DNA of 64,000 nucleotides from Actinomycetota bacterium (GCA_003132585.1 PKYG01000023.1:11841-75840); one strand, 5' to 3'. Shown: positions 35,611 through 58,301, counted from the stretch's first letter. The notes: generated by a model from the letters alone, not told the origin. Made by a program: numbers and translations.

Positions 35611-35980
35611 GATCTGACCCCATTCGTTGGTCCGATTCTCATGCTAGTGCGAGCGTCGGTCGCCGTGTGAGGACGGCAGGTTGGACCGTTTGCTGGAGGT
35701 CTTGGGGGAACCTCTCGCCTCTGAAGTGCTGGAGGTCTTGTTCTTGTGTCTGGCCGTCAGAAAGCCAAGACTTGCAGCGACTGCTGTCGTCTCGCCGACG
35801 CGAAGCCGACGTGTGCTGCTGTGAAGACCCCCAGCAGCCAACGTGAGGGCGCCGACACATGCCGACGCCACCAGGGGCCGTACAGCGCTACAGAGCGTAC
35901 GTGAGCTGGTCGGCGATCTTCGATCCGAAAACCATAACCTCAACCTGGATCGATTTCAGGGGTGCGGGTCAACGGTACCC
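35611..35980. repeat. Copy Y (most complete: P1 + M + Q) of the multi-copy intergenic element, between the GGDEF gene and the integrase
   Basis: Shares P1 with 33575-33715 and M+Q with 58111-58286; Q also matches 22557-22630. Contains an internal 13-nt tandem duplication (gctggaggtcttg x2). Confidence 0.6.
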
Positions 35981-36004
35981 CTCCCAGTGATGAGGAGGTC
36001 GACC

Positions 36005-37246
36005 ATGCGCGGCCACATCCGCAAGCGCGGCAAACAAGGCTACGAGTACATCATCGACATCGGTCCCCACCCCGCCCAGCGCTGCCAGAGTTGCAGCAAG
36101 CGCTTCTGGGTGGAGCGGCGACCGAAACGCAGCTGTCCCCGATGCGGCGGTGAGCTCTCCGAGGTCGAGGAGCGTCGGCGCGAGACCAAGGCCGGCTTTC
36201 GCACGCTGACCGAGGCGCAGCAGGCGATGAGCAAGGCGCTCACGGCGGTCGCAGAGCAGCGCCACGTGATCGCCACGCCCGTCAGCGTAGCTGAGTTTCT
36301 CATCGACGTCTGGCTGCCGGCGATCATGCCCACCGTCAGGCCGACGACTCATGCCGGCTATCGCAGCGCCTGTTTGCGCCACGTCTGCCCCCGCCTCGGG
36401 CAGGTGAAGCTGCAGCGCTTAGACGGCGCGATGCTCAACTCACTCTATGCGCATCTCTCAAAAGCAGGCGGCATCCGCCGCGAAGGCGGCCTGGCGCCGC
36501 GCAGCGTGGCCCTCGTGCACCGCACCCTGCACCGCGCCCTCGCGGACGCCGTGCGCTGGGGCTATCTTCCCTACAGCACAGCCGATAGAGCCGACCCGCC
36601 GCGGCAGACGGGCCTCGAGCGTGAGCTGCCCGTCTGGTCTGAGGAGCAGTTGCACAGCTTTCTCGATAGTGTGCGCGAGGAGCGCCTCTACCCGCTGTGG
36701 CGCTTTCTCTCGATGACCGGCTGCCGGCGCGGTGAGGCCTTAGGGCTGCAATGGCGTGATCTCGACATGGAGAGTTCCCGCGTTGCCATCCGCCGAGCAC
36801 TGATCCCGATCGATGGCAAGCTGCTTGTCTCGGAGCCGAAGACAAAACGTGGGCGCCGGCTGATCGCCCTCGATCAAGAGACCTTGGCGGTCTTGCGCGA
36901 ACAAGCCGCCTGCCAGCTCTCCGAGGAGCGCCTCTGGGGTGAGGGCTGGGTGTCCTCGGGCTACGTCTTTACCAAGGAGAGCGGCGAGCCGCTGCACCCC
37001 GAGCGGATCAGCGCCCTCTTTGGTCGCCTGGTGCGCCGGGCGTGTTTGCCCAAGATCCCCCTGCATGGCCTCAGACACACCTATGCCAGCCTCGCGCTCG
37101 CCAAGGGCGTCAATCCGCTGATCGTCTCCCGCCGGCTGGGGCACTCGACGGTGGCCTTTACCTTGGACGTCTACTCACACGTCCTGCCACAGGTCGATGC
37201 CGAGGCGGCGGAGCTGATCGCCGGCATCTCCCCACGCCTCAGCTGA
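36005..37246 (+). CDS. Tyrosine-type site-specific recombinase/integrase (phage-integrase family)
   Basis: C-terminal LHGLRHTYASLALAKGVNPLIVSRRLGHSTVAFTLDVYSHV (R-H-R-Y catalytic region). ATG 36005 with a GAGGAGG Shine-Dalgarno; the ORF-track start at 35843 lies within the repeat element. Confidence 0.85.
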   Translation: MRGHIRKRGKQGYEYIIDIGPHPAQRCQSCSKRFWVERRPKRSCPRCGGELSEVEERRRETKAGFRTLTEAQQAMSKALTAVAEQRHVIATPVSVAEFLIDVWLPAIMPTVRPTTHAGYRSACLRHVCPRLGQVKLQRLDGAMLNSLYAHLSKAGGIRREGGLAPRSVALVHRTLHRALADAVRWGYLPYSTADRADPPRQTGLERELPVWSEEQLHSFLDSVREERLYPLWRFLSMTGCRRGEALGLQWRDLDMESSRVAIRRALIPIDGKLLVSEPKTKRGRRLIALDQETLAVLREQAACQLSEERLWGEGWVSSGYVFTKESGEPLHPERISALFGRLVRRACLPKIPLHGLRHTYASLALAKGVNPLIVSRRLGHSTVAFTLDVYSHVLPQVDAEAAELIAGISPRLS

Positions 37247-37729
37247 CTCCGGCTTCCCACACGCAAGTCACGCTCGATCAAGATCGACTCCTCGTGCCCG
37301 CGTTGCGCGCTCGACGCTTGTGTCAGTGCGCTCAGAAACCTGCGTCATTTGCAGGGGGAAATCAGCTCGATGTCGGCGGAATGGTGACCGCTCACGCCTG
37401 AGCGCGGCGCGGAGGCGCCATTCGTCGCGCCATCCGGTCCGGGAGTTATGCGCGATTTGCAGGCGAAACGGTGGTGGCGGGGGACAGAATTGAACTGTCG
37501 ACACCATGATTTTCAGCCGTCACAGACCGTGCCTGCGGTGCCCGTCTAGCCTCCACACAGCCCCATACAGTGCCACTATTTCCACTGTTTCACATGGGCA
37601 TGTTGGCAAGAATGTTGGCAAGGAAGGAGTAGAACCAGGCAGCCGGTAGCAGCCGTAGACAGGACATTGAAACCGCAGAGGGGCCCGCTCGAGCGATCGG
37701 CGGGCTCCTCTGCATTTGTCACCTTTGAC

Positions 37730-38110
37730 ACCGCTTCGTCGCCCTCTCCGGTTGACCGCCAACGACGTGCTCTGGGTGCTGGCCGATCTCTTCTTGGAGT
37801 ACGGCATCCCCGAGCACATCCGCTCCGACAACGGGCCCGAGTTCGTCGCCAAGGCGGTGCGGGGTTGGCTCTCGCCGAGCTGGGGGTCACCACCCTGTTC
37901 ATCGAGCCCGGCTCGCCTTGGGAGAACCGCTACGTCGAGTCGTTCAACGGCAAGCTCAGAGATGAGCTTCTCAACGGCGAGATCTTCTACACGCTCAAGG
38001 AAGCTCAGATCCTGGTCGCCAACTGGCGGCGGCTCTACAACGGCCTGCGCCCGCACAGCTCGCTGGGACAACGCCCGCCGGCGCCCGAGACGATCGTCTG
38101 GCCGGGCTTC
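37730..38110 (+). pseudogene. IS3-family transposase remnant (rve integrase-core C-terminus, N-truncated and frameshifted)
   Basis: HIRSDNGPEFVAKAV in one frame, then IEPGSPWENRYVESFNGKLRDELLNGEIFYTLKEAQILVANWRRLYNGLRPHSSLG in another frame. No N-terminal HTH or DDE N-part. Confidence 0.55.
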
Positions 38111-38419
38111 TCGCTTGCAGACTTCGGCCCCCCGTCGCCTACACGGGAGGTAGCCCTGGGACTGATATGGAGCAGCATCTGTCAAGCGGCCGACGTCGAA
38201 CCGCCCGCACTCGCTGAGGCGGGGTTGGAGTGGATTACCGGAGGACGCCGCGGTGAGCGCGCCGGGCTGCGATAGCGACGCGCGGTCAGTCTGATATGCG
38301 CGGGTTTGGCTATCCGCATGACCGTCTCTGCGTCGGGAGCGGCGCTGCTCTAACGGCGAGCGTGGCCCTCTCAGAGGGCTGCTCATAGTCCCATCGCGCA
38401 TGCTCCTCGCGCTGGCGGC

Positions 38420-39700
38420 CCAGCGCACTCGCCGCGGCGTCCTTGAGGTCGCAGCCTTCAGGCGTCCATCGTCGCCAGACTCCAGCACCAGCCGGCCAGA
38501 TCGCGGGCCACGGCCACGGCGGCCACCGTGGAGCGCTTGCCGCGGGCATCGAAGGCAGCCCAGCGTCGCTGCAGGCGCCGCCCCGCGGTCTCGGCGCGCA
38601 CGCGCACCACGGCCGGCTGCCCCTCGCGGCGGCCCGCCAGCTCGCGGCTCGCACGCGAGGCCGGCCGCCGCTGCTGCCAGGCGGCCTCGACCAGCAGGCG
38701 CCGGGCGTGGCCGTTGCCGGTCTTGGTGATCGCTCCCTGGCGGCGGCGCTCACCGGAGGAGGACTCGCTGGGGGTGAGCCCCAGGTAGGCGCCGATCGAG
38801 CGCCCGTCGAAGCGCTGCCAGTCGCCGATCTCGGCGGCCAGCCCGAAGGCGGTCAGGGTGGAGACGCCACGCAGACACGAAAGGCGACCGACCGTCGCCG
38901 CCCAGGGCTGCTTGGCGGCTTCCTCGCAGATCGCCACATCGAGGGCGTCGCGGCGCGCCCGCACGCTCTCGACGGCGGCCACGGCCTCCCCGTAGGCGAG
39001 GGCCAGGCCGCGCATCTCGAAGCGCTGGCTGGCGAGCCAGCGCTCATGCGCCTGCATCCAGGCGCTGCCCTCCCAGACGAGGCCCTGGCGCAGGAGCAGC
39101 TTGGAGAGTCGGTGGCGGGCGCGCATGAGGTCGGAGCGCGCGTCCTCGCGGGCGCGCACGAGGTCACGGGCGGCTTCCTCCTCCAGGCTCGGCACGCGCA
39201 CCGCGACGAGCTCGTCGAGGCGCAGCAGCTTCGCCAGCCGGAGGGCGTCGCGGCGGTCGGTCTTGACGCGCTCGCCGGGGGCGCGGGCGATGCGCGAGGG
39301 GGCGGCCACCAGGCAGGGGATCCGCGCCGCCTCGCAGGCGCGCGCCAGGCCGAAGCCGGTGGGCCCCGCCTCGTAGGCGACGGAGACGGACTCGCCCTGG
39401 GCGCGCAGCCAGGGCAGAAGCTCGGCGGTGCGCGCCGGGGCGCTGCAGATCCTCACCTCGCCGGTACCTGCGTTGAGCATCGCGGCCGCGACCGACCGTG
39501 CGTGCACATCGAGACCGATGAACGTAAGCTCACTCATGCGGCGCCTCCCCGTAAATGCGGCTCTGCCACCACCCGGTGTGGCGGCAACCCGCGCCAACTT
39601 ACGTGGCGGGGCGCCGCGCCGCCACATACGGTCTAACATAAGAAGTGGACCAATGAATGGGGTCTGGTCAGTACGAGCTACAAACAGCCTTGGACGCCAA
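38420..39700 (-). mobile_element. IS110-family insertion sequence (boundaries approximate)
   Basis: Single transposase gene, no obvious terminal inverted repeats (typical of IS110). Sits between the IS3 remnant and the VWA gene. Confidence 0.5.
38458..39537 (-). CDS. IS110-family transposase (DEDD)
   Basis: MSELTFIGLDVHARSVAAAML…YEAGPTGFGLAR… N-terminal DEDD domain; C-terminal …GLTPSESSSGERRRQGAITKTGNGHARRLLVEAAW… Start at ATG 39537. Confidence 0.85.
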   Translation of the reverse strand: MSELTFIGLDVHARSVAAAMLNAGTGEVRICSAPARTAELLPWLRAQGESVSVAYEAGPTGFGLARACEAARIPCLVAAPSRIARAPGERVKTDRRDALRLAKLLRLDELVAVRVPSLEEEAARDLVRAREDARSDLMRARHRLSKLLLRQGLVWEGSAWMQAHERWLASQRFEMRGLALAYGEAVAAVESVRARRDALDVAICEEAAKQPWAATVGRLSCLRGVSTLTAFGLAAEIGDWQRFDGRSIGAYLGLTPSESSSGERRRQGAITKTGNGHARRLLVEAAWQQRRPASRASRELAGRREGQPAVVRVRAETAGRRLQRRWAAFDARGKRSTVAAVAVARDLAGWCWSLATMDA

Positions 39701-39717
39701 GGAGAAACCGGAACCGG

Positions 39718-42414
39718 CTACGCCGTGAGGTTGCCGTAGATGCCGGGCAGCTTGGTGGGCAGCGAGGCGACGTTCTGGATGACCGTGTACCTGGCTGCTC
39801 CGAATAGCTCCCTCAGGTAGTCGGGCCCTTCGGGGTCGACCGTGATACAGAACGTGGCCAATCCTTTGTTCCGCGCCTCGTACAGCGCCATCCTCACGTC
39901 CTCGGTGGCATACGTCATGTTCCCGTAGCCCATATCGTAAGGCCGCCCGTCACTGAGCAGTATCAGCAGCTTGTCGTGAGCCGGCTGGCGTGAGAGGCGG
40001 TCTGCGGCGTGCCGGAGAGCGGCTCCCAGGCGAGTGTAGGCGTGAGGTTCGATGGCCCCGATGCGCCGGGCCACGTTCTCGTCGAACTCGTCCTCGAAGT
40101 CCTTGATGACCCGCAGATCGACGCGATGCCGCCCCTGGCTGGTAAAGCCCAGGATGGCGTAGCGGTCATCGAGCTGCTCGACGGCTTGGGCCAGGAGAAC
40201 GAGGCCCTGTTTCTCGACGTCGATCACGCGGCGATCATCCTCGACCGGCGCCTCCGTCGAGTCGCTCATATCGAGAAGAAAGAGGACCGCGAAGTCCCGG
40301 AGCTTCTTGTCGTGACGGATGAAGACCTTGTCCGTTAGAGGAGCCCCGGCCGCGCGATCGGCCAGAGCTTCTACCAGGGCATCCAGGTCGAGCTCGTCTC
40401 CGTCCGGTTGCCGGAAATAGCGGGCAATGCGCTCGCGACGCAGGCGCTCGAACTGCCGGCGTATGAGCAGGACCTCCCCGCGGTACTGCTCGAGCGTGCG
40501 CTGGACGAAGGAGGAATCTCCCTCGGGTATCTGCCGGCACCGGACCGTACACCAGCGGATCCGGTAGTCGTTGGCCTCGTGATCCCACTCGTCATAGTGG
40601 TAGACCTCGCATTCCGGGAGAAGCTCCTCTCCGGGCTCCTGCTCGAGAATTACGAGGTCGCACCTGGAGTCCGGGAGGTCTCCGAGCGGCACCTCCCCCT
40701 CGGGCATGTCGCTCACCTGTAGAGGTTCGGTCATACCCGAATCGCTCGCATTCAAGCTCTCAATAAGACCAGCGTCATTCGGGTCCAGGCTAGGGGGAGG
40801 GCTGTACCTCTCCCCGGCGGGGACCGCCGCCGCGGCCGGCTCGTCTCCTACCCCAGTCGCCCCCGCCCCGGCCAAGGCCAAGCCGGCCGAGAAGTGGTCG
40901 TGAAAGGGCGGGTACGGCACCTCGGCAAACGCGAAGTCCCTCAGCCGGCCGTATGCAAACCATTCGGGCGCGATCAACTCGAACAGCCGCGCCGAGGCGC
41001 TGAAGGACTGCGCGGGGCTCGCGCCTTCCTCGGTGAGGGGCCGCATCACTTCCTCGATCTTCGCGAGCAGCGCCTCGTTTTCAAGTATGCGAATTCCGAA
41101 GGGAAGAACGGCGAGCTGGGCGCGGAGAGCCGGTGGGGTGACCGGCTCCCGGCGCCCAGGCCTTTGCAGGTAGTCCGCATACACCTGGCGCAGCAGTAGC
41201 TCGGCGTCCTGACGAAGCCCGGGAAGGACCTCAAAAAGCGCGGCGTCGATGCGGTAGTCCTCCGAGGCCATGAGCAGGAAACGGCGGACCGCGGCCTCCT
41301 CGGATGTCGCCCCGGGCGTATCCAGCTCGCCGGAGCCGTTCCCCAGAAGCTGTCTCACGAGCGACCGCCCCTCGAAGCTGCCGAACCGCTGGTGGGCAGC
41401 GGCATGAATGCCGGTGAGCTTGTACATTCGCGCCGGGCTGAGACCGCGGGCGCCCAGGGTGGGGCGCAGATAGAGAGTCCGGCTGTCGTTGAGGGCGGCC
41501 ACCTCGGAGGGTACCGAAGTAGGCTCGAGGAGGTCGAACATGCTTCGAACCTCCACCGGGCGCCCGAGAAAAGCTTCCAGAACTACGCTTACTCGTGGTT
41601 GAAGGGCGGAGAACGAGGTTCCTCGAGAAAAGGCCTGCACCACCTCGTGGCTCTTCTTGGAGTTGTAGGACATATAGAGCACGAGGCCCTCGTCCGGCAA
41701 GCCGGCAGCGAGGCCTTCCTCGGCCCATTCCCGGATTTGGGCGACGCTCAGCGTACCGAGAAGCGCGGGCAGCATCTGAAAGAAGCCCTTGGTGGCCTGC
41801 CGGGATCTCTCGGCTATCCGGCTGCCGATTTGGGCCAAGGCCGCCAGATCACGAGGCTGTAGCGACGGCGCGCTTTGGGCCACTGATTGCAGAAAACCGT
41901 GTGCCGCCCACCAATCAGCGCCGGCCAAGGCCACGGCCTCCGCGTGCCACGTCCGGAGGAAAGCCAGGTTTCTGCCGGCCAGGACCAGGGGCGCGTACTC
42001 CAGGAAAGTCTCGGCCAGATTTGCTTTGCTGGCTATTCTCAGAGCATAGTCCGTCACCTCGACAGCGGTTTCACGGTCCATCGAGGCCAGATAGCATAAC
42101 TGGGCCAGGTAAGCACCGGCCAGGTGCGCCGAGTGAGCCATGAAAACCCGAACGGCCTCGTGAACCGGTTCGCGCAGGTCTGGGTGCTCACTCAGGCAGG
42201 CCAGCCCTTCCAACGCCGGCAGGAGAATGCCCTCCTTGTCCCGCCAGGTCTGGGCACTGACGAGCTCGGCCAGCTCGGTCCACAAGGCCAGGTCGGGGGA
42301 CTCGAGCGCCTGAAGCTCAGCCAGGTGCCGTTCCGCGAAGGCGAGCGAGTGCCCCCCCAGGCCGCTGAGCAGCGAAGGCAGGAGCCGGGACCCACTTGTC
42401 GGAAGGTCGCTCAC
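39718..42414 (-). CDS. Large VWA-domain protein, CbbO/NorD/CoxE-like partner of the MoxR-type ATPase
   Basis: ~600-aa helical N-region plus C-terminal VWA: [18 protein letters not shown]…[12 protein letters not shown]… (MIDAS). The start overlaps the upstream stop (ATGA). Confidence 0.75.
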
Positions 42415-43244
42415 CCCGCAAATACGGTCTCAACCAGCTCGTCCATTGTGGCCAGCATCTCCTCGTCGTCACTGAGCGGGCGCGTGACCGCCACCCGGAC
42501 AGCTGAGCGCGGGGTAAGCCCGCGTTGAATCAGCCGGCCGGCGTTGACCAGAAGGCGAGTCGAAGCCCCCTCTTCCAAGCCGTGGTCCTTCAAATTCCTC
42601 AGCTGGTGGGCCAGCTCGACGAGCTGCACCGACATCTTCTCGGGAACGTCTGTCTCCGAGCGGACTATCTCCGCCTCGAGCTCCCTCTCCGGGTAGTCGA
42701 ACTCGAGAGCGACAAAACGCTGGCGCGTCGAGGGCTTCAGATCCTTGAGAATGCTCTGATAGCCCGGGTTGAAGGAGATGACGAGCACGAAGTCCTCGTG
42801 CGCGGAAAGGAAGCTTCCCCGCTTCTCCAGGGGCAGAATGCGCCTATCGTCCGCCAGAGGATGGATGATGACGATAGTGTCTTTCCTCGCTTCGACAAAC
42901 TCGTCCAGGTAGCAAACCGCCCCCCGCCTGACCGCCGTGGTCAGCGGCCCGTCCATCCAGACGGTTTCCCCGCCGACGAAGAGGTAGCGCCCGACCAGGT
43001 CCGAGGCGGTTAGATCTTCGTGGCAGGCAACGGTTATGAGGGGCAAGCTCAACCGATGAGCCATATACTCGAGAAAACGGGTCTTCCCGCTGCCCGTAGG
43101 CCCCTTGAGCATGACAGGGAGCTTCAGGGCATGAGCCTTCTCGAAGAGCTCTACCTCCTCCCCAAGGGGTCGGTAGAAGGGCTCCCGGATGATTCGGTAG
43201 TCCTCGAGGCTCCCGTCTCTTCCGTATTCCGTCGCCTCTCGCAT
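42411..43244 (-). CDS. CbbQ/NorQ/NirQ-family (MoxR-class) AAA+ ATPase
   Basis: [48 protein letters not shown]…[13 protein letters not shown]… (Walker A/B, CbbQ-type N-terminus). Confidence 0.85.
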
Positions 43245-43349
43245 TTGCGCTCATCACTCCTACGGGTCGAACAGCATGCGCCCTGAGTAGCCCAATGGTG
43301 CTCCTGTGGGTGTCCCGGCGTGGTGGTGTTCCGCCGCGGGTCCTGGGTG

Positions 43350-44162
43350 TCAGTGGTGATGAGCCCCGGAGTGTCCTGCCGCTCCCGCAACCTGGTGAGC
43401 CGGTGGCTCTTCCGCAAACGCGCCATCGTAGTCTGAGCCCACAACCTCCGCCTCGCCGATCACCAGGCGCGCAACATTAGGCCAGCCTTCCGGGTCGGCA
43501 CCGCCTGCCCCGTAGCCGACCGCCTCCGACCTCAGAGCGGGCAAGACGGCCACCTGCCGGCCCAACGCCGTCACCAGGGCGGCGCCCGTGGGTGTGGTCA
43601 GCTCGCGCCGCGGCCCCCGCGCGTGGAATGTCCAGCCGGTCAACAAGCGCAAGGTGGCCGGGGCCGGCACAGGGAGGAGGCCATGAGCACAGCGCACGGT
43701 TCCACTGCCGACGTTTACCGAACCGACCAGCAGCTGGCGCACCTCCAGGCTATGGAGCCCGAAGACGGTTCCGGCGATGTCCGCCAGCGCGTCGGCCGCG
43801 CCCACCTCGTGGAAGTGCACCTGGCGAGGATCCACGCCGTGCACCGCCGCCTCGGCCTCGGCGAGGCGCAGAAAGACGGCGATTGCGCGGCTCTTCACCT
43901 CGTCGGGTAGGGCGCTCGCCTCCAACAGACCGACGATGTCCGCGAGATGACGGTGCTCACGCTGCTCGGGGTAGGTGACCTTGACGCTCGTGGCGCCGAT
44001 TCCATTCCTCCGCTCGCTGTCGGCCTTTACCTCCAAGCCCTCCACCCCGAGGCAGTCTAGGGCACCCTGAAGATCCGTTAAGGCAAGGCCAGCATCGATC
44101 AGAGCCCCGAGGAACATGTCGCCGCTTATGCCGCTGAAGGGGTCCAGCCAACCTATCCTCAT
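43350..44162 (-). CDS. larC: Nickel-pincer nucleotide cofactor Ni-insertion protein, N-terminal (LarC1/DUF111) part only; the CTP-binding LarC2 domain is absent
   Basis: MRIGWLDPFSGISGDMFLGALIDAGL… typical LarC start; His-rich C-terminal tail (HSGAHHH). 270 aa, versus ~420 aa for full LarC. Confidence 0.7.
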   Translation of the reverse strand: MRIGWLDPFSGISGDMFLGALIDAGLALTDLQGALDCLGVEGLEVKADSERRNGIGATSVKVTYPEQREHRHLADIVGLLEASALPDEVKSRAIAVFLRLAEAEAAVHGVDPRQVHFHEVGAADALADIAGTVFGLHSLEVRQLLVGSVNVGSGTVRCAHGLLPVPAPATLRLLTGWTFHARGPRRELTTPTGAALVTALGRQVAVLPALRSEAVGYGAGGADPEGWPNVARLVIGEAEVVGSDYDGAFAEEPPAHQVAGAAGHSGAHHH

Positions 44163-44250
44163 GAGACCATGTCTCCCATCCTCACGCCGCTGGCTACCAT
44201 GCTGCTGGTTCCGTGGCCAATGGGGTGCGAGAACGCATAAAAGCGCCGCT

Positions 44251-49699: not shown

Positions 49700-49730
49700 A
49701 AGTACTAACATTATAGGAGGCACTTTACCA
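49700..49730 (-). promoter_or_regulatory. Putative sigma70-type promoter (-10 TATAAT) for the minus-strand lar-containing operon, giving a ~300-nt leader
   Basis: Minus-strand sequence …cctcctataatgttagtac… within an AT-richer 850-bp divergent intergenic region. Confidence 0.3.
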
Positions 49731-50243: not shown

Positions 50244-50834
50244 GTGATGGCTCACGAGCTTACGGACGCCTTCTCAGACGCCTTGAGAGCCTGTGGTGGC
50301 TCTGCCATGGTCGTCTCTGCTCACGGGCTGGCTGACGCTGTGGCCGAGGTAGTCGACCAAGAGCGAGTTGTTCTGGTCACTCCTGACCTTCTAGGCCTTG
50401 CCGAAAGCCTGCGCCAGAAGGGCATCGACGCGAGAGTGGGCTCATCACAACACTCACTTTCCGCAACCGCGGTCTCCCTGCCGTCGGCGAATCTGGATGA
50501 GGTCAGCTCCATTTTCTGTCGAGCAGAATGTGGTATCACCGGTGCTTTGCTAGGGATCTCAGCTTCCGGCACGGTCGCAATCGACACTCAGCACGGAAAT
50601 GCCGGGCTGTTGTCGTGTCTCCCGCCCCACCACGTCGCGATCCTGCGCGAGGGTGCCATCCAGAAGACGCTGGAAGGTGCGTTGGAGACACTGGCCCCAC
50701 AACCCGGTGTCCGGGACTGTCGGTTCGTGTTGGTCACCGGCCCTTCGCGAACGTCGGACATTGAGATGATGTCAGTACTGGGTGTCCACGGACCTCTGAA
50801 GCTCGATGTGATCATTGTTCGGGAGGATGCCTGA
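50244..50834 (+). CDS. lutC: Lactate utilization protein C (LUD/DUF162 domain), short form
   Basis: MMAHELTDAFSDALRACGGSAMVVSAHGLADAVAEVV…; SD-like sequence upstream. Confidence 0.65.
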   Translation: MMAHELTDAFSDALRACGGSAMVVSAHGLADAVAEVVDQERVVLVTPDLLGLAESLRQKGIDARVGSSQHSLSATAVSLPSANLDEVSSIFCRAECGITGALLGISASGTVAIDTQHGNAGLLSCLPPHHVAILREGAIQKTLEGALETLAPQPGVRDCRFVLVTGPSRTSDIEMMSVLGVHGPLKLDVIIVREDA

Positions 50835-53028
50835 CGTGGCCGAAACCGGGCATCGACTGATGCAGCGTGAAATCAGCCTGGCGCTTGCGGATCCGACCCT
50901 GCGCACGGCCCTCAAGCGGGCTATGGCTATCCTCTATCAGCGTCGCGAGTCGGCATTCGCCAGCATCGACTACGAGGCGCTGCGTTCACGCGCGCATGCC
51001 ATCAAGGAGGCAGCGATAGCCCGCAATGCCGAACTCCTCGTCGAGCTCGAGCAGCGTGTCTTGACCGCCGGCGGGCATTTCTTCCTGGCACAGTCTGCTG
51101 AGGATGCTCGCCAGTACATCGCCAACCTGGCGCGCAACAAAGGTGTGCAGCTCGTGGTGAAGTCTAAGTCGATGACCTCAGAAGAGATAGACGTGAATCA
51201 TGCCTTGGAGCAGCTGGGCATCGAGGTAGTCGAGACAGACCTTGGTGAGCGCATTATCCAGCTCGCTGGCGAGCACCCGAGCCACCTGATCGTGCCGGCG
51301 ATCCACAAGTCCAAAGAGGAAATCGTCCAGATCTTCGCCGAGAACATGGACGTCCCAAACCCGCCCTCTGACGCCGAGGGCCTCACACTCTTGATGAGAC
51401 GGGACTTGCGGCAACGGTTCATCACCGCTGATATGGGAATCACGGGGGCCAATTTCGTGGTGGCCGAGACAGGCACGGTCGTGCTCGTGGAGAACGAGGG
51501 GAACATCCGTCTCACCACGGAGCTGCCACCGGTACACGTGGCCGTTGTGGGTCTTGAGAAGATCATCCCGCGGTTCGCCGATCTTGCCACGCTGCTTGAA
51601 CTCCTCCCACGGAGCGCTACGGGTCAGCTCCTTACCGCCTACGTTTCGTTCATTTCCGGTGTCGCCTCCAGCGAGATTCTGGACACCGGGCGGGCCACCC
51701 AGATGCGCGAACGTGAGTTCCATCTGGTGATCCTCGACAACGGGCGCCGAGCCGCAGCCCGGGACCCGGAACTCCGGGAGTTGCTTTACTGCATCCGCTG
51801 CGGGGCTTGCCTCAACGCATGCGCCCCATATCGGAACGTCGGTGGCCACGTGTACGGCGTCCATCCGTACCCCGGCGGTATCGGCTGCGCCTGGGCCTAC
51901 ATTACGAGCGGGCACGCCGAGGCGAAGCAGATAAACGGCCTGTGCACTACGTGCTCCCGCTGTACTGAGGTCTGCCCCACGAAAGTGGACATCCCGTGGC
52001 TAAACACGGTCATCAAGCAGCGCAACAACCAAGAGTTCGGAGCTGGGTTTCGCCAGCGAGTCTTCGCACGGGCCGATCTCATGGGGGCGGCATTCAGCCC
52101 AGTAGCTCCTGTCGCCAATGTAGGGCTTCGCACAATGCCGGCGCGCTGGTCATTTGCCTTGATGGGAATCGACCCAGAGAAGCGCTTGCCCAGATACGAA
52201 CGCGAGACTTTCACGAACTGGTATCGGCACCGGCACTCTGTTTCTGTTGGCCAGTCGCACCGCAGGGTGGTGCTCTTCGTGGACTGCTTCATGAACCACA
52301 ATCTGCCCCAGGTAGGCAAAGCTGCGGTTCAGGTTCTAGAAGCGGCAGGGGTCGAGATTGCAGTAGTGCACAATTCCTGTTGTGGTCGTCCCGCCATGAG
52401 TCAAGGCCTGCTGGAGGTGCCCCGGCGCTGGGCGCAACAGAACCTAGACAAGCTCGGTCACCTGGTGGAAGAGGGCTACGATGTTGTCTGCGTCGAACCC
52501 TCGTGCTTGTCGGCCCTGCGCGACGACTACCGCCGGCTCCTAGAGCAGACTCCTTCGGCCTCTGATCCTCGACTGCATCTGCTTGAAGAACACAGCTACG
52601 ACTTCGCCGAATACATCGTGAACGGTGTGCGCGATGGATCGCTCTCGCTGAGGCTGACCCCGGTGCATTCCGCCTTTGTCGTCCATGGGCACTGCCACCA
52701 GAAAAGCATCGGCATTGGTTCTGCACCCGCCGAGGCGCTCCGCCTCATCCCGGACGTGACGGTACACGAGGTCGATGCTCTCTGCTGCGGCATGGTTGGT
52801 TCCTTCGGCTACAAGCAGGAGTACTCGGATTTGTCGCGGGCTATTGGGGAGGAGCTCTTCGAGCAGCTTCGAGCCCATGGCGGAGAGATCGTAGCCTGCG
52901 GCATATCCTGCCGCTCTCAGATCGAGCAGGGCCTGGGACGCCGCGTCTTCCACCCGGCTGAGATTCTCAGTCGGGCACTTCGGCCGCCGCTATCGGGCAG
53001 TAACATCGGGGGTGGTACAGCCTCGTAG
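50815..53028 (+). CDS. lutB: LutB-LutA fusion: iron-sulfur L-lactate oxidase subunit (LUD domain plus 2x[4Fe-4S]) fused to a CCG-domain (LutA/GlpC-like) module
   Basis: N-terminal LUD domain; CIRCGACLNACAPY and CTTCSRCTEVCPTKVD ferredoxin motifs. Two C-terminal CCG cysteine-rich repeats (…VVCVEPSCLSAL…; …ALCCGMVGSFGY…). Confidence 0.8.
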   Translation: MFGRMPDVAETGHRLMQREISLALADPTLRTALKRAMAILYQRRESAFASIDYEALRSRAHAIKEAAIARNAELLVELEQRVLTAGGHFFLAQSAEDARQYIANLARNKGVQLVVKSKSMTSEEIDVNHALEQLGIEVVETDLGERIIQLAGEHPSHLIVPAIHKSKEEIVQIFAENMDVPNPPSDAEGLTLLMRRDLRQRFITADMGITGANFVVAETGTVVLVENEGNIRLTTELPPVHVAVVGLEKIIPRFADLATLLELLPRSATGQLLTAYVSFISGVASSEILDTGRATQMREREFHLVILDNGRRAAARDPELRELLYCIRCGACLNACAPYRNVGGHVYGVHPYPGGIGCAWAYITSGHAEAKQINGLCTTCSRCTEVCPTKVDIPWLNTVIKQRNNQEFGAGFRQRVFARADLMGAAFSPVAPVANVGLRTMPARWSFALMGIDPEKRLPRYERETFTNWYRHRHSVSVGQSHRRVVLFVDCFMNHNLPQVGKAAVQVLEAAGVEIAVVHNSCCGRPAMSQGLLEVPRRWAQQNLDKLGHLVEEGYDVVCVEPSCLSALRDDYRRLLEQTPSASDPRLHLLEEHSYDFAEYIVNGVRDGSLSLRLTPVHSAFVVHGHCHQKSIGIGSAPAEALRLIPDVTVHEVDALCCGMVGSFGYKQEYSDLSRAIGEELFEQLRAHGGEIVACGISCRSQIEQGLGRRVFHPAEILSRALRPPLSGSNIGGGTAS

Positions 53029-53439
53029 TTGGTGTCCCCGCCTATGAGGAGACGGGCAGGCAAGTAGTCCGGTGGAGCACCACGAATGCCCCACCGCCGG
53101 CCGTGACAATTGCATTGAGCGAGGCGATCCTCGGGCCTCAGCGGACCCCACGGGGAGACCAGCAAAACGGTCTAGTGCTCAGTCCAGACCGGGAACACGC
53201 CGATGAAGGCCTCGGCCCAGCGTCGCACTCCGGTCGGCGAAACCGCGCCCACCGAGGCATGACTCCGCGGCATCCAAGTCGTTGACCCGGCTTCAACCAT
53301 TCTGAGAACGGTCCGCCATTACGGTTACACGCACTTGTCTCGCAAGTGGCGTGCACCTATCATGAGGCAAGGAACCGCCCATGCGCGACAGACAACACCG
53401 GACGGCTGGGCAACCAAACGATGCATGTAGGAGATGAGT

Positions 53440-54282
53440 ATGTCGCAGCTGCTTCTGAGAAGACTGGGTGATTCTGGCGCCGACGATGGGAGAACCACAT
53501 CGGAGAGGATTGCTGCCCTCATCAGAGAGCAGATCAACTTGGGGGCCCTGAGGCCAGGGGACCGCATGCCGGCCGAAAGGGCTCTCGCCGAGCAGCTGGG
53601 CGTCGCTCGCTCGGTCGTTCGGGAGGCCTTGAAGGAGCTGCGTGCACAGGGTTTCCTCGCCTCCGGCAGAGGTCGGCAGGGCACGATCGTTGCGACCCCC
53701 CGTGATGCAAGCATCGGCCGACGCCTGGGTGAACTCCTGGAGTCCGGGGCCGCTCCGCTTGTCGACCTGTACGAGCTGCGCATGGGTCTTGAGGTCCAGG
53801 CAGCGGCTCTCGCAGCCTGGCGCCGCATTCCGGACGATATTGCCGCCCTTGACAACATCCTTGCAGCAATGGAAGCAACCCCGGACAAGCGGCGCAGCGC
53901 AGAGCTCGACGCTGCTTTCCATGGCGCCGTTGCCCAGGCGGCGCACAACGTGTTCTACCTACACGTGACGGCGGAGTTGGTCGGGCTGCTCCAGGAGAAC
54001 ATCCCGACTATCCTCGACGTTCTTTATGCGGATGCCTCGAGTTCGAACCAGTTGCTCATCCAGCACCAAGCCATCACTACGGCCATACGGAACCGAGACG
54101 TGGAGGGTGCTCGCCGAACAATGACTGTCCACTTGGGCTGGGTAGTGCAAGAGCTCCACCGTCTGCTCAGTCCGCAGCCTATGCCCGGTGCAACTGCAGC
54201 GCCGCCGACCGAAGGGCACGGGAGCCCGGCTGCGGAATGGGAGCTGGCAGTGGTGCCGACGCCACCATCCCTTGGGCTCTGA
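53440..54282 (+). CDS. GntR-family (FadR/FCD subfamily, LutR-like) transcriptional regulator
   Basis: wHTH ERIAALIREQINLGALRPGDRMPAERALAEQLGVARSVVREALKELRAQG plus a C-terminal FCD domain. TAGGAG Shine-Dalgarno 6 nt before ATG 53440. Confidence 0.75.
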   Translation: MSQLLLRRLGDSGADDGRTTSERIAALIREQINLGALRPGDRMPAERALAEQLGVARSVVREALKELRAQGFLASGRGRQGTIVATPRDASIGRRLGELLESGAAPLVDLYELRMGLEVQAAALAAWRRIPDDIAALDNILAAMEATPDKRRSAELDAAFHGAVAQAAHNVFYLHVTAELVGLLQENIPTILDVLYADASSSNQLLIQHQAITTAIRNRDVEGARRTMTVHLGWVVQELHRLLSPQPMPGATAAPPTEGHGSPAAEWELAVVPTPPSLGL

Positions 54283-54790: not shown

Positions 54791-55399
54791 ATGATCACGC
54801 CCCGCATTCTTGCCGAGCTGGCGGCCATCGTGGGGGATGCGAACATCGTCTGCGCCGAGACGCTGCTGCACGCTTACGAGTACGACGCGTACATGCTTGA
54901 GAGTGCCCGTCCCGATGCCGTTGTCTTCGTTTGCTCGGTAGAGGAGGTTGCCTCTGTTGCCAAGGTGGCTCAGAGAGCAAGCATTCCCCTGATCCCCAGG
55001 GGTTCTGGCACAAACCTGAGCGGCGGGACCTTGGCCGTGCGGGGCGGCATCGTGATCGAACTGGCGCGCATGAATCGCGTCCTCGAGATCGATGTGCCCA
55101 ATCGCACGGTGCTGGTGGAAGCAGGTGTTTTCAATGCAGATGTCTCCGTCGCGATCAACGATCTCGGCTTCTACTACGCGCCCGACCCAGCAAGCGGCAA
55201 GGCCTGCACGATTGGTGGCAACATCGCTGAGGGAGCCGGTGGCCCCCATTCCTTCAAGTACGGCGTGACCGCCAACCGCGTCCTCGGCGCCGAAGTCGTG
55301 CTTCCAGACGGAGAAGTGGTATGGCTGGGCGGCAAGGGTTGCGACGCTCTAGGCTACGACGTGCTCGGGCTGTTCATCGGCAGTGAGGGCACCCTGGGT
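54791..55399 (+). pseudogene. FAD-linked oxidase (GlcD / D-lactate dehydrogenase-like) N-terminal fragment; truncated right after the GSEGTLG motif
   Basis: FAD_binding_4 domain (…VVFVCSVEEVASVAKVAQRASIPLIPRGSGTNLSGG…LFIGSEGTLG) then non-protein-like sequence. The ORF continues only as an antisense artefact across the lipoprotein gene. Confidence 0.55.
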
Positions 55400-55516
55400 G
55401 ATCGGACGGCCGTCGACGGCGCAGTTGGTGAAGTGCACCGGTTCGAAGTCGGCGAAGCCAATACCGTGCGACATTTGTGCCTCGACGATGATCTCGGCCG
55501 AGTCGCACTTGGCAGC

Positions 55517-56431
55517 TCAGCTGGTCTTGACGATCGAGAAGCTCTCGCCTTGAGTCCCATCGACCAGCGTGAGCTTGAAGCGGTGGCCTCCGAGGCTTGT
55601 GACGGTAGCAGTGACCGTGTCCCCGGCGTTGACCACCATGTCCTGCGGGCCATCGAGCGTGCTGGCCGTGTGGATCGTGACCGGCGGCTTAGGGAACATC
55701 TCGTACCAAGCCACGTAGCTTTCCCCCAGGATGCAACGGATGCCAGTCTGTTCGACCGTGTTGCTTCCCGGGACCTTGCCGTCGAGACCCACCCAGATAG
55801 AGACGCGCCGCGCGGTAGTCCCGTTCACGTGGAGCTGCGGTACCGTCCACGTTGCGGTGACTCTCGTGAACCGCCGACCGATAGCACAGTAGCCGGCCCA
55901 GTTGAACTGAAAGACGTAGGCGGAGTAGGCCTTGTCGGCACTCTGCACGCGCTGCACCGCCCTGTTGTAAGCCGGGAGGTCCTTGTTCCAGGCCGCCGCG
56001 TTGTAGGCGAGTGCGTCCTTGTGCAGACGATCCTCGTAGCTCACCTCATACCTCACGCGAGAGGCGTACTTGCTAGCGAGCCTCCACTGCTTGGAGCCGT
56101 CGTTCTTCGGCTGAATGGCGCGAGCCCTCCGAAGGTCGTCAAGGGCTGCCCTGTGCCGCGTCGTGTACGCGCCGAAGTTGTGAGAGTAGTCGGCTAAAGA
56201 TTCATTGTAGGCGTGCTGGCGGGCGCGACTAATCATGGTGACGTACTTCGAAATCGCGGGCGATACGGTCACGCTGGGATCAACGATCTTCCTTATTGTG
56301 GGCGGCGGGGGCAGGGGCGGCGGCGGGGCAGGCAGCTTGCTGCCACATCCGGTGGCAACAGTTGCGCACAGCACTAGGAGCAGGCAAACAGGAACGATGG
56401 CAATACGTGTACTGGTCCCCCAGCCTTTCAT
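55517..56431 (-). CDS. Secreted lipoprotein with C-terminal peptidase G1 (eqolisin)-like / concanavalin-like beta-sandwich domain
   Basis: Lipobox LLVLCATVATGC; Pro-rich linker; C-terminal WTVPQL…SIWVGLDG… resembles the G1 peptidase WVGIDG motif (tentative). Confidence 0.5.
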   Translation of the reverse strand: MKGWGTSTRIAIVPVCLLLVLCATVATGCGSKLPAPPPPLPPPPTIRKIVDPSVTVSPAISKYVTMISRARQHAYNESLADYSHNFGAYTTRHRAALDDLRRARAIQPKNDGSKQWRLASKYASRVRYEVSYEDRLHKDALAYNAAAWNKDLPAYNRAVQRVQSADKAYSAYVFQFNWAGYCAIGRRFTRVTATWTVPQLHVNGTTARRVSIWVGLDGKVPGSNTVEQTGIRCILGESYVAWYEMFPKPPVTIHTASTLDGPQDMVVNAGDTVTATVTSLGGHRFKLTLVDGTQGESFSIVKTS

Positions 56432-56683
56432 GGTCCCCCGGTAGACGAGGAGAGTCTACAGCCGGCTTGGGGCCGAAACTAAGGAGAATGTCACGCCCGG
56501 GCGACTGTCTTTGTGTGACCGGCGCGCTCCGGCAGCGTAGCCGGCCCCCAGAGTTGACCGGCCACCGTCTCGGGGACTTCGCTCACACGCACAGAACGTC
56601 CGGTCGCTGGCGACCGTATGCGAGCCCTGGTCAGCCGGCGAGGGTGACGAAGGCGCGGCGCGGGTGACAATGCCGATGCCGCT

Positions 56684-57931
56684 CTAGGTGGGTGGCTTGC
56701 AGACGCTGCAGGGCCGGTAACCCTCTGCCTTGGCCTTGCTCAGGCGGATGGCGATCTTGCTCTTGGAGAGGTAGCGACAGCCAGCGCGGTGGTAGCACTC
56801 ACCGGTGGCGGTGATGTAGACGATCGGATCGCCGCTGCTCGAGCTGGTCGTGCCGCCGCCAGACGAACCGCTTCCGGCCGAGACCGGCTTCGAGGAGCGT
56901 GTGAAAGACCACGTGACCGCACCCGAGGCCGCGAATCGCACCGTGATCGTGCCGTCTCTCTGCGTCGTGTAGGTGCGCACCCCGTGGGCGTGCAGGCGGG
57001 CGAGGGTGGCCGGTGACGGGTGACCGTAGGGGTTCGGACCGACGGAGATGACGGCGTACTGCGGCCGTGTCTGAGAGAGGAAGCTGTCGCCGGTCGAGTA
57101 GGCGGAGCCGTGGTGGGCGACCTTGAGCAGGTAGAGCGGCGGGCCGCGGGCGCAGATTGAGCCGACGGCGGCCTCGTTGGGGCCCGTGCAGTCGCCGGTG
57201 AGCAGCACCTCTTTGCCGTCGATCTTGAGCAGAAGGACGATGCTGTCGGCGTTCAGGTCTGGCGCCATGTAGGTGTCCGGGCTGAGCCCCTGGGCGACGA
57301 GCGCGCCGAAGTGCAGCCGCTGCCCGCGATAGGCGTGGCTGACCTTCGCACCGACGGAGTGCAGCGCAGACATCAGACGTGCATAGCAGGCGGTGGTTGC
57401 CGTGGCATCACTGTAGGCAAGGCGCGGCCGGTAGCGTTGCACGATGCTCACGAGGTCGCCGATGTGGTCTTCGTGGGGATGGGTGACCACGAGCGTGTCG
57501 AGGCGTGAGATGCCGAGGGAGGAGAGTTCGCCGGCGATCGCCGCGTCGTTGCCGGCGCTGCCGCCGTCGATCAGACCCGCCCAGGAGCCGGCCTTGATGA
57601 CGATGCCGTCGCCCTGACCGACGTCGACGAACGCGAGCGTGACACTGCCGCCACCCGTGGCTTTGGTCGGCGCCGCCGTCTTTGCCGGCTTCGGCTTGGC
57701 AGAGGGCTTTGTCGCCGGCTTCGCGCTGCGCGCGGGCGTTGCCTTGGCACGGGGCCCTGCGGCGCTCGGAGTGACAGCATTGCTCCCACAGCTCGCCAGG
57801 AGCGCGGACAGCAGAAAGGCGACGAGCAGAGCGCGCAGACAGCGCCAGAGAATAGGCAGCGGTTTGGCTACGCGCTGCTCGCAGCGTGCAAGTCCTTGAG
57901 AAGAGCGCGACACTTTCCCGAAAACTCCCAA
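56684..57931 (-). CDS. Secreted MBL-fold metallo-hydrolase (ComEC/Rec2-related lactamase_B domain) with a C-terminal Cys/His motif
   Basis: Lipoprotein-type signal (LLSALLASCGS). …FVDVGQGDGIVIK…LVVTHPHEDHIGDL…, C-terminal CYHRAGCRY…CSVCKP. Confidence 0.7.
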   Translation of the reverse strand: MGVFGKVSRSSQGLARCEQRVAKPLPILWRCLRALLVAFLLSALLASCGSNAVTPSAAGPRAKATPARSAKPATKPSAKPKPAKTAAPTKATGGGSVTLAFVDVGQGDGIVIKAGSWAGLIDGGSAGNDAAIAGELSSLGISRLDTLVVTHPHEDHIGDLVSIVQRYRPRLAYSDATATTACYARLMSALHSVGAKVSHAYRGQRLHFGALVAQGLSPDTYMAPDLNADSIVLLLKIDGKEVLLTGDCTGPNEAAVGSICARGPPLYLLKVAHHGSAYSTGDSFLSQTRPQYAVISVGPNPYGHPSPATLARLHAHGVRTYTTQRDGTITVRFAASGAVTWSFTRSSKPVSAGSGSSGGGTTSSSSGDPIVYITATGECYHRAGCRYLSKSKIAIRLSKAKAEGYRPCSVCKPPT

Positions 57932-58110
57932 AGCTCCCCCGTGGCGAGATCCGGTGCCTCGCCTTGGACACCACCCACATTGTCACCCTATCAGGATTGT
58001 GGAACGGATCTCGGAGCGGGTGGAGTGTGCACAGGTCTATGAATCGTGTGCTGGTGCGAATCCGAGCCTAGGAACGGCCTCTGCCACGCAGATGCCACCC
58101 ACCGTGCTCC

Positions 58111-58286
58111 CGACCAGAAACCGGCGCGACACCTGAGGGTGACGCACGCTGGCCTCGAACATCGGCCGCCAAGCGCCGACGCCACGAGAGGCCGTACAGC
58201 GCGTCAGAGCGTGGTGCGTCAGCTGTCCGGCGATCCTCGGGCTGAGAACGACCACCTCAAGGTGGACCGATCTCCTGGGCTCGGCC
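58111..58286. repeat. Copy Z (M + Q modules, 5'-diverged) of the multi-copy intergenic element
   Basis: …gccgacgccacgagaggccgtacagcgcgtcagagcgt…ctgtccggcgatcctcgggctgagaacgaccacctcaaggtggaccgatctcctggg; ~75% identical to 35850-35960. Confidence 0.6.
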
Positions 58287-58301
58287 ACGGCCTCGCCCCC
58301 G

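Follow-up and report, generated by a model that had tools for sequence, protein, structure and literature searches.

Which element carries the lar and lut genes of this Actinomycetota bacterium, and where are its ends? The sequence that we analysed is a stretch of 64,000 nt (GCA_003132585.1 PKYG01000023.1:11841-75840), referred to here as the window. An initial annotation had placed these genes, tentatively, in an island lying between two related repeats, elements Y and Z. Every feature it listed is found where it had been placed, and the integrase, IS genes, pseudogenes and uneven composition of the region bear out its picture of a horizontally mobile, repeatedly rearranged mosaic island. Its proposed boundaries, on the other hand, do not stand; the true ends appear to be a 45-nt tRNA repeat (37472-37516), to the right of the integrase gene that had been noticed beside Y, and a tRNA-Phe gene beyond the window. 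We consider it very probable that the lar and lut genes lie within a genomic island of ~31 kb that a phage-type tyrosine integrase inserted into the 3' end of the tRNA-Phe gene, spanning 37.5-68.5 kb in the orientation of the window (the right limit lies beyond the window and is given in extended coordinates).

The 45-nt repeat lies on the minus strand and reproduces the 3' part of tRNA-Phe(GAA) exactly, starting in the anticodon loop and running to CCA. It occurs once in the window, where no chance matches would be expected, and it has the same orientation as the tRNA gene; sequence identity with the tRNA breaks off in the anticodon loop and the core finishes precisely at CCA. The intact tRNA-Phe(GAA) gene is found on the source scaffold at ~68488-68563 in extended coordinates, ~4.5 kb past the end of the window, and forms the right end of the island. 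Adjoining it is a second integrase gene, int2 (~67021-68262, extended coordinates; 413 aa), whose stop codon lies 225 nt from the tRNA 3' end. On sequence grounds the repeat is thus probably the att direct repeat of the distal side, at which the lar/lut island ends on the left, and int2 adjoining the tRNA, together with this distal repeat, makes the pattern classically associated with islands integrated at tRNA genes. The right end being the tRNA-Phe gene, the type I RM operon on the minus strand at 58302-64000 (hsdR 58302-61313, hsdS 61313-62620 and hsdM from 62620 past the window end), correctly recognised after Z but originally placed after the end of the island, falls inside it. Beyond hsdM there follow a 210-aa gene, a gene for a HEC-01-like ATPase, int2 and tRNA-Phe.

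tRNA-linked genomic islands and integrative elements with P4- or phage-type tyrosine integrases are a known class that includes tandem arrays at a single tRNA gene. The island described here resembles them in having an integrase gene adjoining the 3' end of an intact tRNA gene, a direct repeat of the 3' portion of the tRNA at its far end, defence and metabolic cargo together with IS elements and pseudogenes, and a second related integrase and repeat, as in tandem accretion. It differs from them in that no excisionase, replication or transfer genes, and no empty site or verified circular form, were recognised or recovered here.

The integrase gene noticed in the initial annotation, int1, begins, as described there, directly beside Y (33 bp from it); its CDS (36005-37246) matches Pfam Phage_integrase, has a 413-aa gene call and, with its flanks, makes up a plus-strand unit at 35972-37516. 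Aligned with temperate-phage integrases, the integrase matches over its full length at ~30% identity. An integron was also considered and rejected: with the integron integrase models the score is 32 bits, where the cutoff is 265, and the intergenic repeats are IS-type elements. The units of int1 and int2 share 94.8% DNA identity over 1545 bp (95% for the proteins), and each has an intact ORF of 413 aa. The gene int1 is not the integrase of this island, as had been supposed: it lies outside, across the 45-nt repeat, and it is int2, beside the tRNA gene, that belongs to the island. Since int1 stands just outside the left repeat and is arranged as int2 is (stop codon, then 225 nt, then the 3' sequence of the tRNA), the best reading makes it the tRNA-proximal end of an earlier island that lies in tandem with the present one. 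An earlier, related island would have been present first, and the present one would then have entered the tRNA-Phe gene that the earlier island had regenerated, giving a tandem array. This order of integration, like the activity of the integrases, is something we infer, unlike the gene content, the repeat, the tRNA gene, int2 and the strain contexts, which can be observed directly. The putative older island has no far end in the window, where no third tRNA repeat was found.

It is possible, if unlikely, that no tandem integration took place, and that the integrase gene and the tRNA 3' end were instead segmentally duplicated in place or by gene conversion, the DNA between the copies being ordinary chromosome that homologous recombination, mediated by IS and MITE elements, has rearranged. 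Within copies that are otherwise 5% diverged, a 491-bp tract (36912-37402) is identical in the two integrase units, which points to ongoing gene conversion or homologous recombination, and one contig (L109) joins the tRNA-proximal to the distal end through a crossover within this tract common to both integrase genes. The resulting junction is the only one that resembles that of an excised circle, yet it could be due to homologous recombination or be an assembly chimera, and the crossover is not in the tRNA core. Duplication would also fit the rearrangement breakpoints, one within a MITE copy and the other within a homologous gene (see below), and the finding that, while both halves of the island occur in alternative contexts, the contigs carrying int1 or int2 include no clean empty site or precise attB (int1-tRNA-trkA, or flank joined straight to tRNA). 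Against it, the succession of integrase gene, 225 nt and 45-nt core up to CCA, with identity breaking in the anticodon loop, is the exact geometry of integration at a tRNA, and the stretch enclosed by the repeats carries what islands typically carry (defence genes, IS elements and pseudogenes). We thus favour tandem integration at tRNA-Phe.

Elements Y and Z had been put forward as candidate boundaries, with the reservation that they are too diverged to be a simple attL and attR. The reservation was well founded. Both appear to belong to a dispersed MITE-like family whose terminal inverted repeats are of the IS3 type, as do two further elements, X and W, all of which we take from their sequences to be remnants and not att sites. 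Y (35610-35971, plus strand) is complete at ~362 bp, its L-type repeat occupying 35610-35633 and its R-type repeat 35947-35971; Z (58165-58288, plus strand), present as had been noted, is only the R-type half of such an element. X (22557-22626, plus strand) is an R-type end whose terminal repeat, GGACCGATTTCGGGGGACAGGTCA, comes last, and a separate L-type terminal repeat lies near it at 22724-22747. W, the fourth copy (33542-33715, plus strand), has an L-type terminal repeat and ~170 nt of interior, and an inverted L-type, IS3-like terminal repeat of 38 nt (39633-39670, minus strand) abuts an IS110 element, 48 nt downstream of the stop codon of the VWA gene. Family copies, 67-85% alike, are thus found at 22.6, 22.7, 33.5 and 39.65 kb, as well as on other contigs, one of which (L107) has a 70-bp mini-element whose 26-nt terminal inverted repeats show 88% complementarity. 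The terminal motifs are found four and three times against ~0 expected, none of 100 shuffles attained the observed repeat counts, and L-type and R-type ends agree at 17 of 24 positions.

These elements share with IS3-family IS elements and MITEs their terminal inverted repeats of ~25 nt, which open with TGA and close with TCA, ends that we take to be like those of the IS3/IS407 type; like IS3-derived MITEs they are 70-360 bp long, have no coding capacity, occur as many diverged intergenic copies and have an IS3-family transposase remnant nearby. They differ in that no 3-4 bp target-site duplication was found: the flanks of Y (TGG and ACG) differ, as do those of the other copies. The nearby IS3 remnant has only the terminal repeat in common with X, W, Y and Z. 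That Y and Z could nonetheless bound a single island (~35.9 to ~58.2 kb), as diverged attL and attR with int1 as recombinase, seems to us highly improbable. They do share ~120 nt, directly oriented and 74% identical, and the integrase gene begins 33 bp past Y; yet there is like sequence in X and there are parts of Y in W, at 22.7 and at 39.65 kb, copies also lie in unrelated flanks on other contigs, the elements finish in IS3-like inverted repeats, the exact 45-nt repeat and the tRNA gene are far better att candidates, and the strain breakpoints map to W and the MBL gene, not to Y or Z. Rather than as att sites, X, W, Y and Z appear to serve as substrates for homologous recombination.

Independent assemblies speak to both the integrity of the locus and its rearrangement. 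One JGI contig of 33.6 kb runs from a GGDEF gene through int1 to int2, and other contigs agree at 100% with the window over 23.9-64 kb, in assemblies from at least five samples. Sample ERZ27254147, another metagenome, contains a block identical to 33684-56809 between unrelated flanks, of which one carries a TIR-domain gene and hydrogenase-like genes and the other an MBL allele (~10% of positions differ from the window copy) followed by a Fic gene. Another contig of that sample has the order tRNA-int2-RM-Z-MBL, then MITE copies and a sigma-70 gene, and has no lar or lut genes. W is one breakpoint, since contig L014 departs from the window there and identity stops at 33649-33684; the other is the 3' end of the MBL gene (56720-56810), the crossover between two alternative strain contexts. 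We find it scarcely credible that the arrangement is an assembly artefact, with chimeric joins made at repeats in a mixed-strain metagenome. Contigs do break at IS110 and within the integrase in several samples, and L109 is possibly chimeric, but the agreement among samples, the presence of both integrases on one contig and the divergence of the MITE copies, too great to mislead an assembler, all argue against it.

Read from the tRNA gene, the interior of the island is a patchwork: a defence half (HEC-01-like ATPase and type I RM), an MBL hydrolase together with a pair of truncated genes that abut, a lactate-oxidation module (GntR-lutC-lutBA), a series on the minus strand (DUF1097, DUF362, BKACE, LarE, LarB, LarC1, CbbQ and VWA) and, at the distal end, an IS3 remnant with a nested IS110. 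The frameshifted, truncated IS3 transposase and the intact IS110 element of the initial annotation are both recovered: the former (37761-38273, plus strand) retains only the last ~110 aa (NF033516, E 6e-29, profile positions 259-366 of 369), in two frames (37761-37874 and 37877-38273) with the frameshift between 37874 and 37877, and the latter encodes an IS110-family transposase (38458-39537, minus strand; NF033542, 207 bits, cutoff 140) in an element of ~38.29-39.63 kb, between the IS3 remnant and the 38-nt IS3-type terminal repeat. The low GC seen by eye at 46.0-50.2 kb is likewise real (0.545-0.618 over 46-50 kb against ~0.65 elsewhere). Composition taken more widely gives a mixed answer: segments range from 54% to 70% GC and the tetranucleotide correlation falls over 38-50 kb, but the mean GC of the island, 63.4%, differs only slightly from the 65.5% of the DNA to its left. 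The MBL-fold hydrolase (56684-57913, minus strand) is ComEC C-terminal-like. As had been described, the glcD-like gene (54791-55399, plus strand) is cut after GSEGTLG, exactly at 55399, leaving only its FAD_binding_4 domain; the supposed insertion of a lipoprotein gene at this point does not hold, since that gene is a peptidase A4/G1-like lipoprotein pseudogene (55400-56431, minus strand) with an in-frame TGA at 55517-55519, itself truncated at profile position 167 of 206 with its 3' end cut at the same junction. Thus 55399/55400 is where two truncated genes abut, with no clean insertion.

The lar, AAA+ and VWA genes together span 39718-45914 on the minus strand, as had been seen, and belong to a longer series on that strand whose first gene encodes a DUF1097 membrane protein (48841-49395). 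LarE (45066-45914; TIGR00268, 323 bits against a cutoff of 150) and LarB (44251-45069; NF033503, 268 bits against 175) exceed their NCBIfam equivalog cutoffs. The nickel insertion protein (43350-44162, 270 aa) is the conserved LarC1-only form, with a His-rich tail; its LarC1 domain aligns with M. thermoacetica LarC over residues 1-237 of the latter, and a search of 72.6 kb with 60 LarC C-terminal domains and their HMM gave no match to the CTP-binding LarC2. Neither Pfam (PF09861, among the ORFs) nor tblastn with two LarA sequences found a LarA, and the lar genes are therefore not attributable to lactate racemisation. Compared with the LarABCE lactate racemase and nickel-pincer system (PMC7583248, PMC13510736), the island thus has LarB, LarE and LarC1 and differs in being without LarA and LarC2 and in having, at the place expected for the user enzyme, a DUF362 protein (47227-48717, 496 aa) with a predicted LarA-like fold, which we regard as a candidate user of the nickel-pincer cofactor. 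Between it and LarE lies the gene for a BKACE-family (beta-keto acid cleavage) enzyme (46037-47110).

Downstream of the lar genes are a CbbQ/NorQ-type MoxR AAA+ ATPase (42411-43244; CbbQ_C domain, CbbQ E 2e-100, NorQ E 2e-94) and, overlapping it by 4 nt, an 898-aa VWA protein (39718-42414) of a rare family. The C-terminal 300 aa of the latter resemble NorD (E 8e-48 against the C-terminal half of NorD) and conserve the MIDAS motif DMSDS; no relative is known for its 600-aa N-terminal region. The pairing of a MoxR AAA+ protein bearing CbbQ_C with a VWA/MIDAS partner is that of NorQ/NorD and CbbQ/CbbO (PMC9976466, PMC13036017, PMC4660213), but there are no cNOR or rubisco genes in the window, and it is Lar genes that adjoin the pair here, whereas homologous loci have CobW GTPases, URO-D-like proteins and, in some, LarA. 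Where the downstream DNA of homologous CbbQ-VWA loci is available, CobW-x172-CobW-URO-D comes next; this is absent here, and the pair is severed from its usual CobW/URO-D partners at an IS junction.

Lastly, the lutC, lutBA and gntR genes reported in the initial annotation are present over 50247-54282 on the plus strand: a LutC-like protein with a LUD domain (50247-50834), a LutB-LutA fusion of the LdhH-like type (50836-53028; E 1.4e-170) and a GntR/FCD regulator (53440-54282). The LutA (CCG), LutB (LUD and 4Fe-4S) and LutC (LUD) modules are all found, with LutB and LutA fused, and the genes are consistent with lactate oxidation; since the fusion scores 569 bits with the LdhH model, under its curated cutoff of 800, their substrate specificity is not established. 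Of the lactate metabolism first proposed as the cargo, then, the lut part fits and the lar part, without LarA, does not. Among 185,579 species genomes there was no close reference genome, the best LutBA match being 62% identical and having only lutC-lutBA in common. As an element the island is of an ordinary type; its cargo is mildly unusual.

The lar and lut genes in this stretch are carried by a genomic island at a tRNA-Phe gene, a structure of a well-known kind that here forms part of a tandem, decayed array. We reached the DNA past the end of the window via hsdS, and found there, in order, hsdM, a gene for a 210-aa protein, a HEC-01-like ATPase gene, an integrase gene (int2, 413 aa), a tRNA-Phe(GAA) gene called by ARAGORN, trkA, a permease gene and an H+-pyrophosphatase gene. 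Window positions 35972-37516, which include the tyrosine integrase gene int1 (36005-37246, plus strand), match the int2 unit at 94.8% identity; the two integrases are both intact and 95% identical as proteins, and the similarity between the units stops within the tRNA. Positions 37472-37516 reproduce the 3'-terminal 45 nt of tRNA-Phe without a mismatch, starting in the anticodon loop and finishing with CCA; this repeat and the tRNA gene are identically oriented, and the spacing to the respective integrase stop codon is equal. No further copy of the repeat was found in the window. Integration at the 3' end of a tRNA gene places the integrase beside the regenerated tRNA at one end of the inserted DNA and a partial tRNA repeat at the far end. 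The repeat, tRNA and integrase are laid out here in just this manner, and therefore the lar/lut island extends from 37517 to ~68487 (in coordinates continued past 64,000), roughly 31 kb, with the restriction-modification (RM) operon inside it and int2 as its integrase. The initial annotation had placed a mosaic island at 35611-58300, with int1 beside the repeat Y and the repeats Y and Z as candidate ends. That interpretation is partly supported, with the boundaries corrected: the integrase closest by does not delimit the island, nor do the closest repeats.

Lying on the far side of the 45-nt repeat, int1 is best interpreted as the end, next to the tRNA, of a related island that integrated earlier, in which case two islands would stand in tandem; no trace of the older island's far end was found in the window. 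Both integrases align over their full length with temperate-phage integrases at ~30% identity. A tract of 491 bp (36912-37402) is identical in int1 and int2 while the remainder differs at ~5% of positions, a pattern suggestive of gene conversion between these genes. The type I RM operon and int2 are separated by a HEC-01-like/AbiL-like ATPase (PADLOC E 9e-56) with its 210-aa partner (positions 5934-7791 of metagenome contig L106, ~64.8-66.7 kb in extended coordinates). These genes adjoin the RM operon, and the tRNA-proximal half of the island can therefore be described as a defence module.

Gene identities were obtained from Pfam and NCBIfam scans, in which all the genes named in the initial annotation were present. 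A GAF-GGDEF protein (33887-35539, minus strand) is encoded to the left of int1. Inside the island, an IS3-family transposase remnant (37761-38273, plus strand; the last ~110 aa, with one frameshift) and an intact IS110 transposase gene (38458-39537, minus strand) are followed by a minus-strand cluster encoding a VWA protein (39718-42414), a CbbQ/NorQ AAA+ ATPase (42411-43244), LarC (43350-44162), LarB (44251-45069), LarE (45066-45914), a BKACE-family enzyme (46037-47110), a DUF362 protein (47227-48717) and a DUF1097 membrane protein (48841-49395). The plus-strand lut module consists of genes for LutC (50247-50834), an LdhH-like LutB-LutA fusion (50836-53028) and a GntR/FCD regulator (53440-54282); it fits lactate or hydroxy-acid oxidation, with an LdhH score that falls under the curated cutoff. 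Further along are a glcD-like fragment (54791-55399, plus strand) that ends exactly after GSEGTLG, an MBL hydrolase gene (56684-57913, minus strand) and the minus-strand hsdR, hsdS and hsdM genes (58302 onward). There is indeed a gene at 55517-56431, where a lipoprotein had been proposed, but it is a peptidase A4/G1-like pseudogene, whose Pfam match grows from positions 2-124 to 2-167 of the 206 profile positions when an in-frame TGA is read through. The read-through match halts at the junction with the glcD fragment, and two truncated genes therefore abut at 55399/55400. Exact protein matches locate the window on a metagenome scaffold of 214.6 kb (ENA ERZ28664350 scaffold_5), beginning near scaffold position 3747. 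Window GC is ~65%, and the dip seen by eye at 46-50 kb is genuine (0.545-0.618). Composition is heterogeneous: segment GC ranges between 54% and 70%, and tetranucleotide correlation falls over 38-50 kb; the mean GC of the island differs little from that of its surroundings.

The arrangement is not an assembly artefact, since 23.9-64 kb is reproduced at 100% identity by independent assemblies from several samples and one JGI contig of 33.6 kb spans the region from the GGDEF gene and int1 through int2. Two other arrangements occur in ERZ27254147. The first contains a block identical to window 33684-56809, flanked on the left by a variant copy of the repeat W, followed by a TIR-domain gene and hydrogenase-like genes, and on the right by an MBL allele with differences from the window copy at ~10% of positions, then a Z copy that has diverged and a Fic gene. 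The second runs tRNA-Phe-int2-HEC-RM-Z-MBL and is identical to the window down to ~56720, past which it carries MITE copies and a sigma-70 gene, without lar or lut genes. The window looks like a recombinant of these two arrangements, with probable joints inside W and within the MBL gene near its 3' end. Such a block, at 100% identity beside an MBL gene diverged by ~10%, points to a recent transfer, or to recombination, between diverged backgrounds. We note that contig L109 (JGI 3300050139, Ga0500033_002045, 1-8620) joins HEC-int2 to the IS3 remnant-IS110-VWA segment, which is the arrangement expected of an excised circle or a tandem duplication. The point at which it passes from int2-type into int1-type sequence lies within the common 491-bp tract, not in the tRNA core, and L109 may be an assembly chimera or a product of homologous recombination. 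Among the contigs carrying int1 or int2, none showed a precise empty site. There is no close reference genome for the locus, and the empty-site search in species genomes with LutBA yielded just one relative, an Actinomycetota MAG whose LutBA is 62% identical and which has only lutC-lutBA in common.

The repeats Y and Z of the initial annotation are members of a larger set that includes X and W. Y (35610-35971) is composite, its left part resembling W (33542-33715) and its right part Z (58165-58288) and X (22557-22626), and a terminal motif of ~24 nt closes each part. Copies of the L-type motif, TGAYCTGNCCCCATYCRTYGGTCC, are located on the plus strand at 22724, 33542 and 35610 and on the minus strand at 39670-39647; a related R-type motif, read likewise, forms the right-hand end of each of X, Y and Z. 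None of 100 shuffles reached the observed counts of the L-type terminal motif (n=4) or of the conserved interior core of the R part (GGCGATC...ACCTCA; n=3). Contig L107, from another sample, contains a 70-bp mini-MITE (17307-17378) made up of just the two ends, with 26-nt arms that are 88% complementary, which indicates that the element family is dispersed beyond the island; this copy adjoins a sigma-70 gene. X, W, Y and Z are MITE-like derivatives whose terminal inverted repeats are of the IS3 type, and we take these repeats to resemble IS3/IS407-type ends. No target-site duplications were found at the MITE-like copies.

Other readings of these repeats were rejected. An integron-like arrangement, with Y as attI, W as attC and cassettes to the left of the integrase, is at odds with an integrase that is not IntI-like and with the IS-type terminal inverted repeats. 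The R part of X, Y and Z might be taken for a leader peptide or gene start (a Shine-Dalgarno sequence and ATG, 'MVVGPRIADQL'), but the ORFs end after 14-15 codons and the substitutions have no third-codon-position bias. Against a composite transposon bounded by W and Z or by Y and Z, the target-site duplications do not match, and the variant contig departs from the window within W instead of beyond it. An inverted L-type copy of 38 nt (39633-39670) abuts the IS110 element, which has the IS3 transposase remnant on its other side, suggesting insertion of IS110 into an IS3-type element, immediately inward of its terminus; the position of IS110 next to this terminal repeat may reflect a target preference for IS ends. 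Upstream of the IS110 transposase there is merely ~95 nt of GC-rich hairpin-forming sequence before the terminal repeat (39538-39670).

The left third of the window (782-22306), which ends at X, holds a cell-wall polysaccharide/teichoic-acid-like cluster with genes for GT2 and GT4 glycosyltransferases, a flippase, a pyruvyl transferase and TagF-like and TagD-like proteins. A GH16/Kre9-domain gene contains three tandem 321-nt repeats of 76% identity (3584-4525), inverted copies of which occur in the neighbouring ORF 4779-5396 (5086-5392). An Rfam scan detected only two Moco riboswitches and no match in X, W, Y or Z. The riboswitches are divergent (30657-30796, minus; 30976-31136, plus), share inverted-repeat similarity and lie one upstream of a molybdopterin oxidoreductase operon and the other upstream of an MFS_MOT1 molybdate transporter gene.

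The lar set falls short of a lactate racemase system, and LarA was not detected, either by Pfam scans or in tblastn searches with LarA queries. LarC is present as LarC1 only, matching residues 1-237 of M. thermoacetica LarC and ending at the interdomain linker (the roles of the LarC domains are described in PMC13510736); no LarC2 coding potential was found in 72.6 kb. The ~48 nearest LarC1 homologues (55-89% identity) are all 216-314 aa long, and full-length LarCs are at most 54% identical. The stand-alone form is thus conserved, and the uniformly short closest homologues rule out local truncation of a full LarC. The adjacent CbbQ/VWA pair is NorQ/NorD-like and belongs to a rare family, in whose loci the pair is followed by CobW-x172-CobW and then, where the contig reaches, a URO-D-like gene. 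LarA precedes the pair in three of these loci, and the closest VWA homologues lie beside LarA. The pair in the window is without the CobW-x172-CobW/URO-D partners, and the VWA stop codon is followed 48 nt later by an IS end; the lar-CbbQ-VWA adjacency may therefore itself be a recombination joint. The idea that CbbQ-VWA is a dedicated Lar chaperone is weakened by the family-wide conserved neighbours, which are CobW and URO-D-like genes. We found no paper connecting LarA or LarC with MoxR, NorQ or CobW. A derivation of the glcD fragment from the GlcDF-LarA-CbbQ-VWA arrangement of relatives was rejected, as identity is only 32% and no LarA, CobW or URO-D remnants are present.

The confident model of the DUF362 protein (pLDDT 94) has LarA-family nickel-pincer enzymes as all of its top 18 PDB matches; a sequence-level PDB search with the DUF362 profile gave no match. 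DUF362 and the LarA N-terminal domain belong to the same Pfam clan (PMC11770544). Invariant Lys174 was aligned with the LarA tether lysine by hhalign (a weak match, E 0.17, not significant alone), and invariant His189 lies 15 residues past it, the spacing in LarA being 16; the two residues resemble the tether lysine and nickel-binding histidine of LarA. Two Thermoleophilia-like loci combine DUF362 proteins with LarE, LarB, LarC1 and a MoxR ATPase. The DUF362 protein is a candidate for a new type of nickel-pincer enzyme, and we found no paper tying DUF362 to the nickel-pincer cofactor. A fuller reading, which we consider rather unlikely, is that the minus-strand cluster represents an undescribed branch of nickel-pincer biochemistry with a LarA-fold DUF362 enzyme class, a cofactor made via LarB, LarE and LarC1 without the CTP-binding LarC2, and possibly a metal-insertion chaperone of the NorQ/NorD AAA+/VWA type.

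As an island, the locus is routine: it is a further case in which integrative elements lie in tandem and decay at a tRNA gene, the host being an uncultured bacterium of high GC content from soil or peat, probably a member of the Actinomycetota. It also illustrates the reshuffling of islands of this kind among co-existing strains by scattered MITE copies and paralogous genes. The decisive boundary features are easily overlooked, the tRNA fragment being too short for a tRNA finder and the tRNA gene lying outside the window. Its boundaries have been corrected, and its nickel-cofactor cargo is mildly unusual. That cargo is more interesting than the island: a nickel-pincer cofactor pathway that lacks LarA as well as LarC2 and is accompanied by a DUF362 protein resembling LarA provides a testable lead toward new nickel-pincer enzymes.
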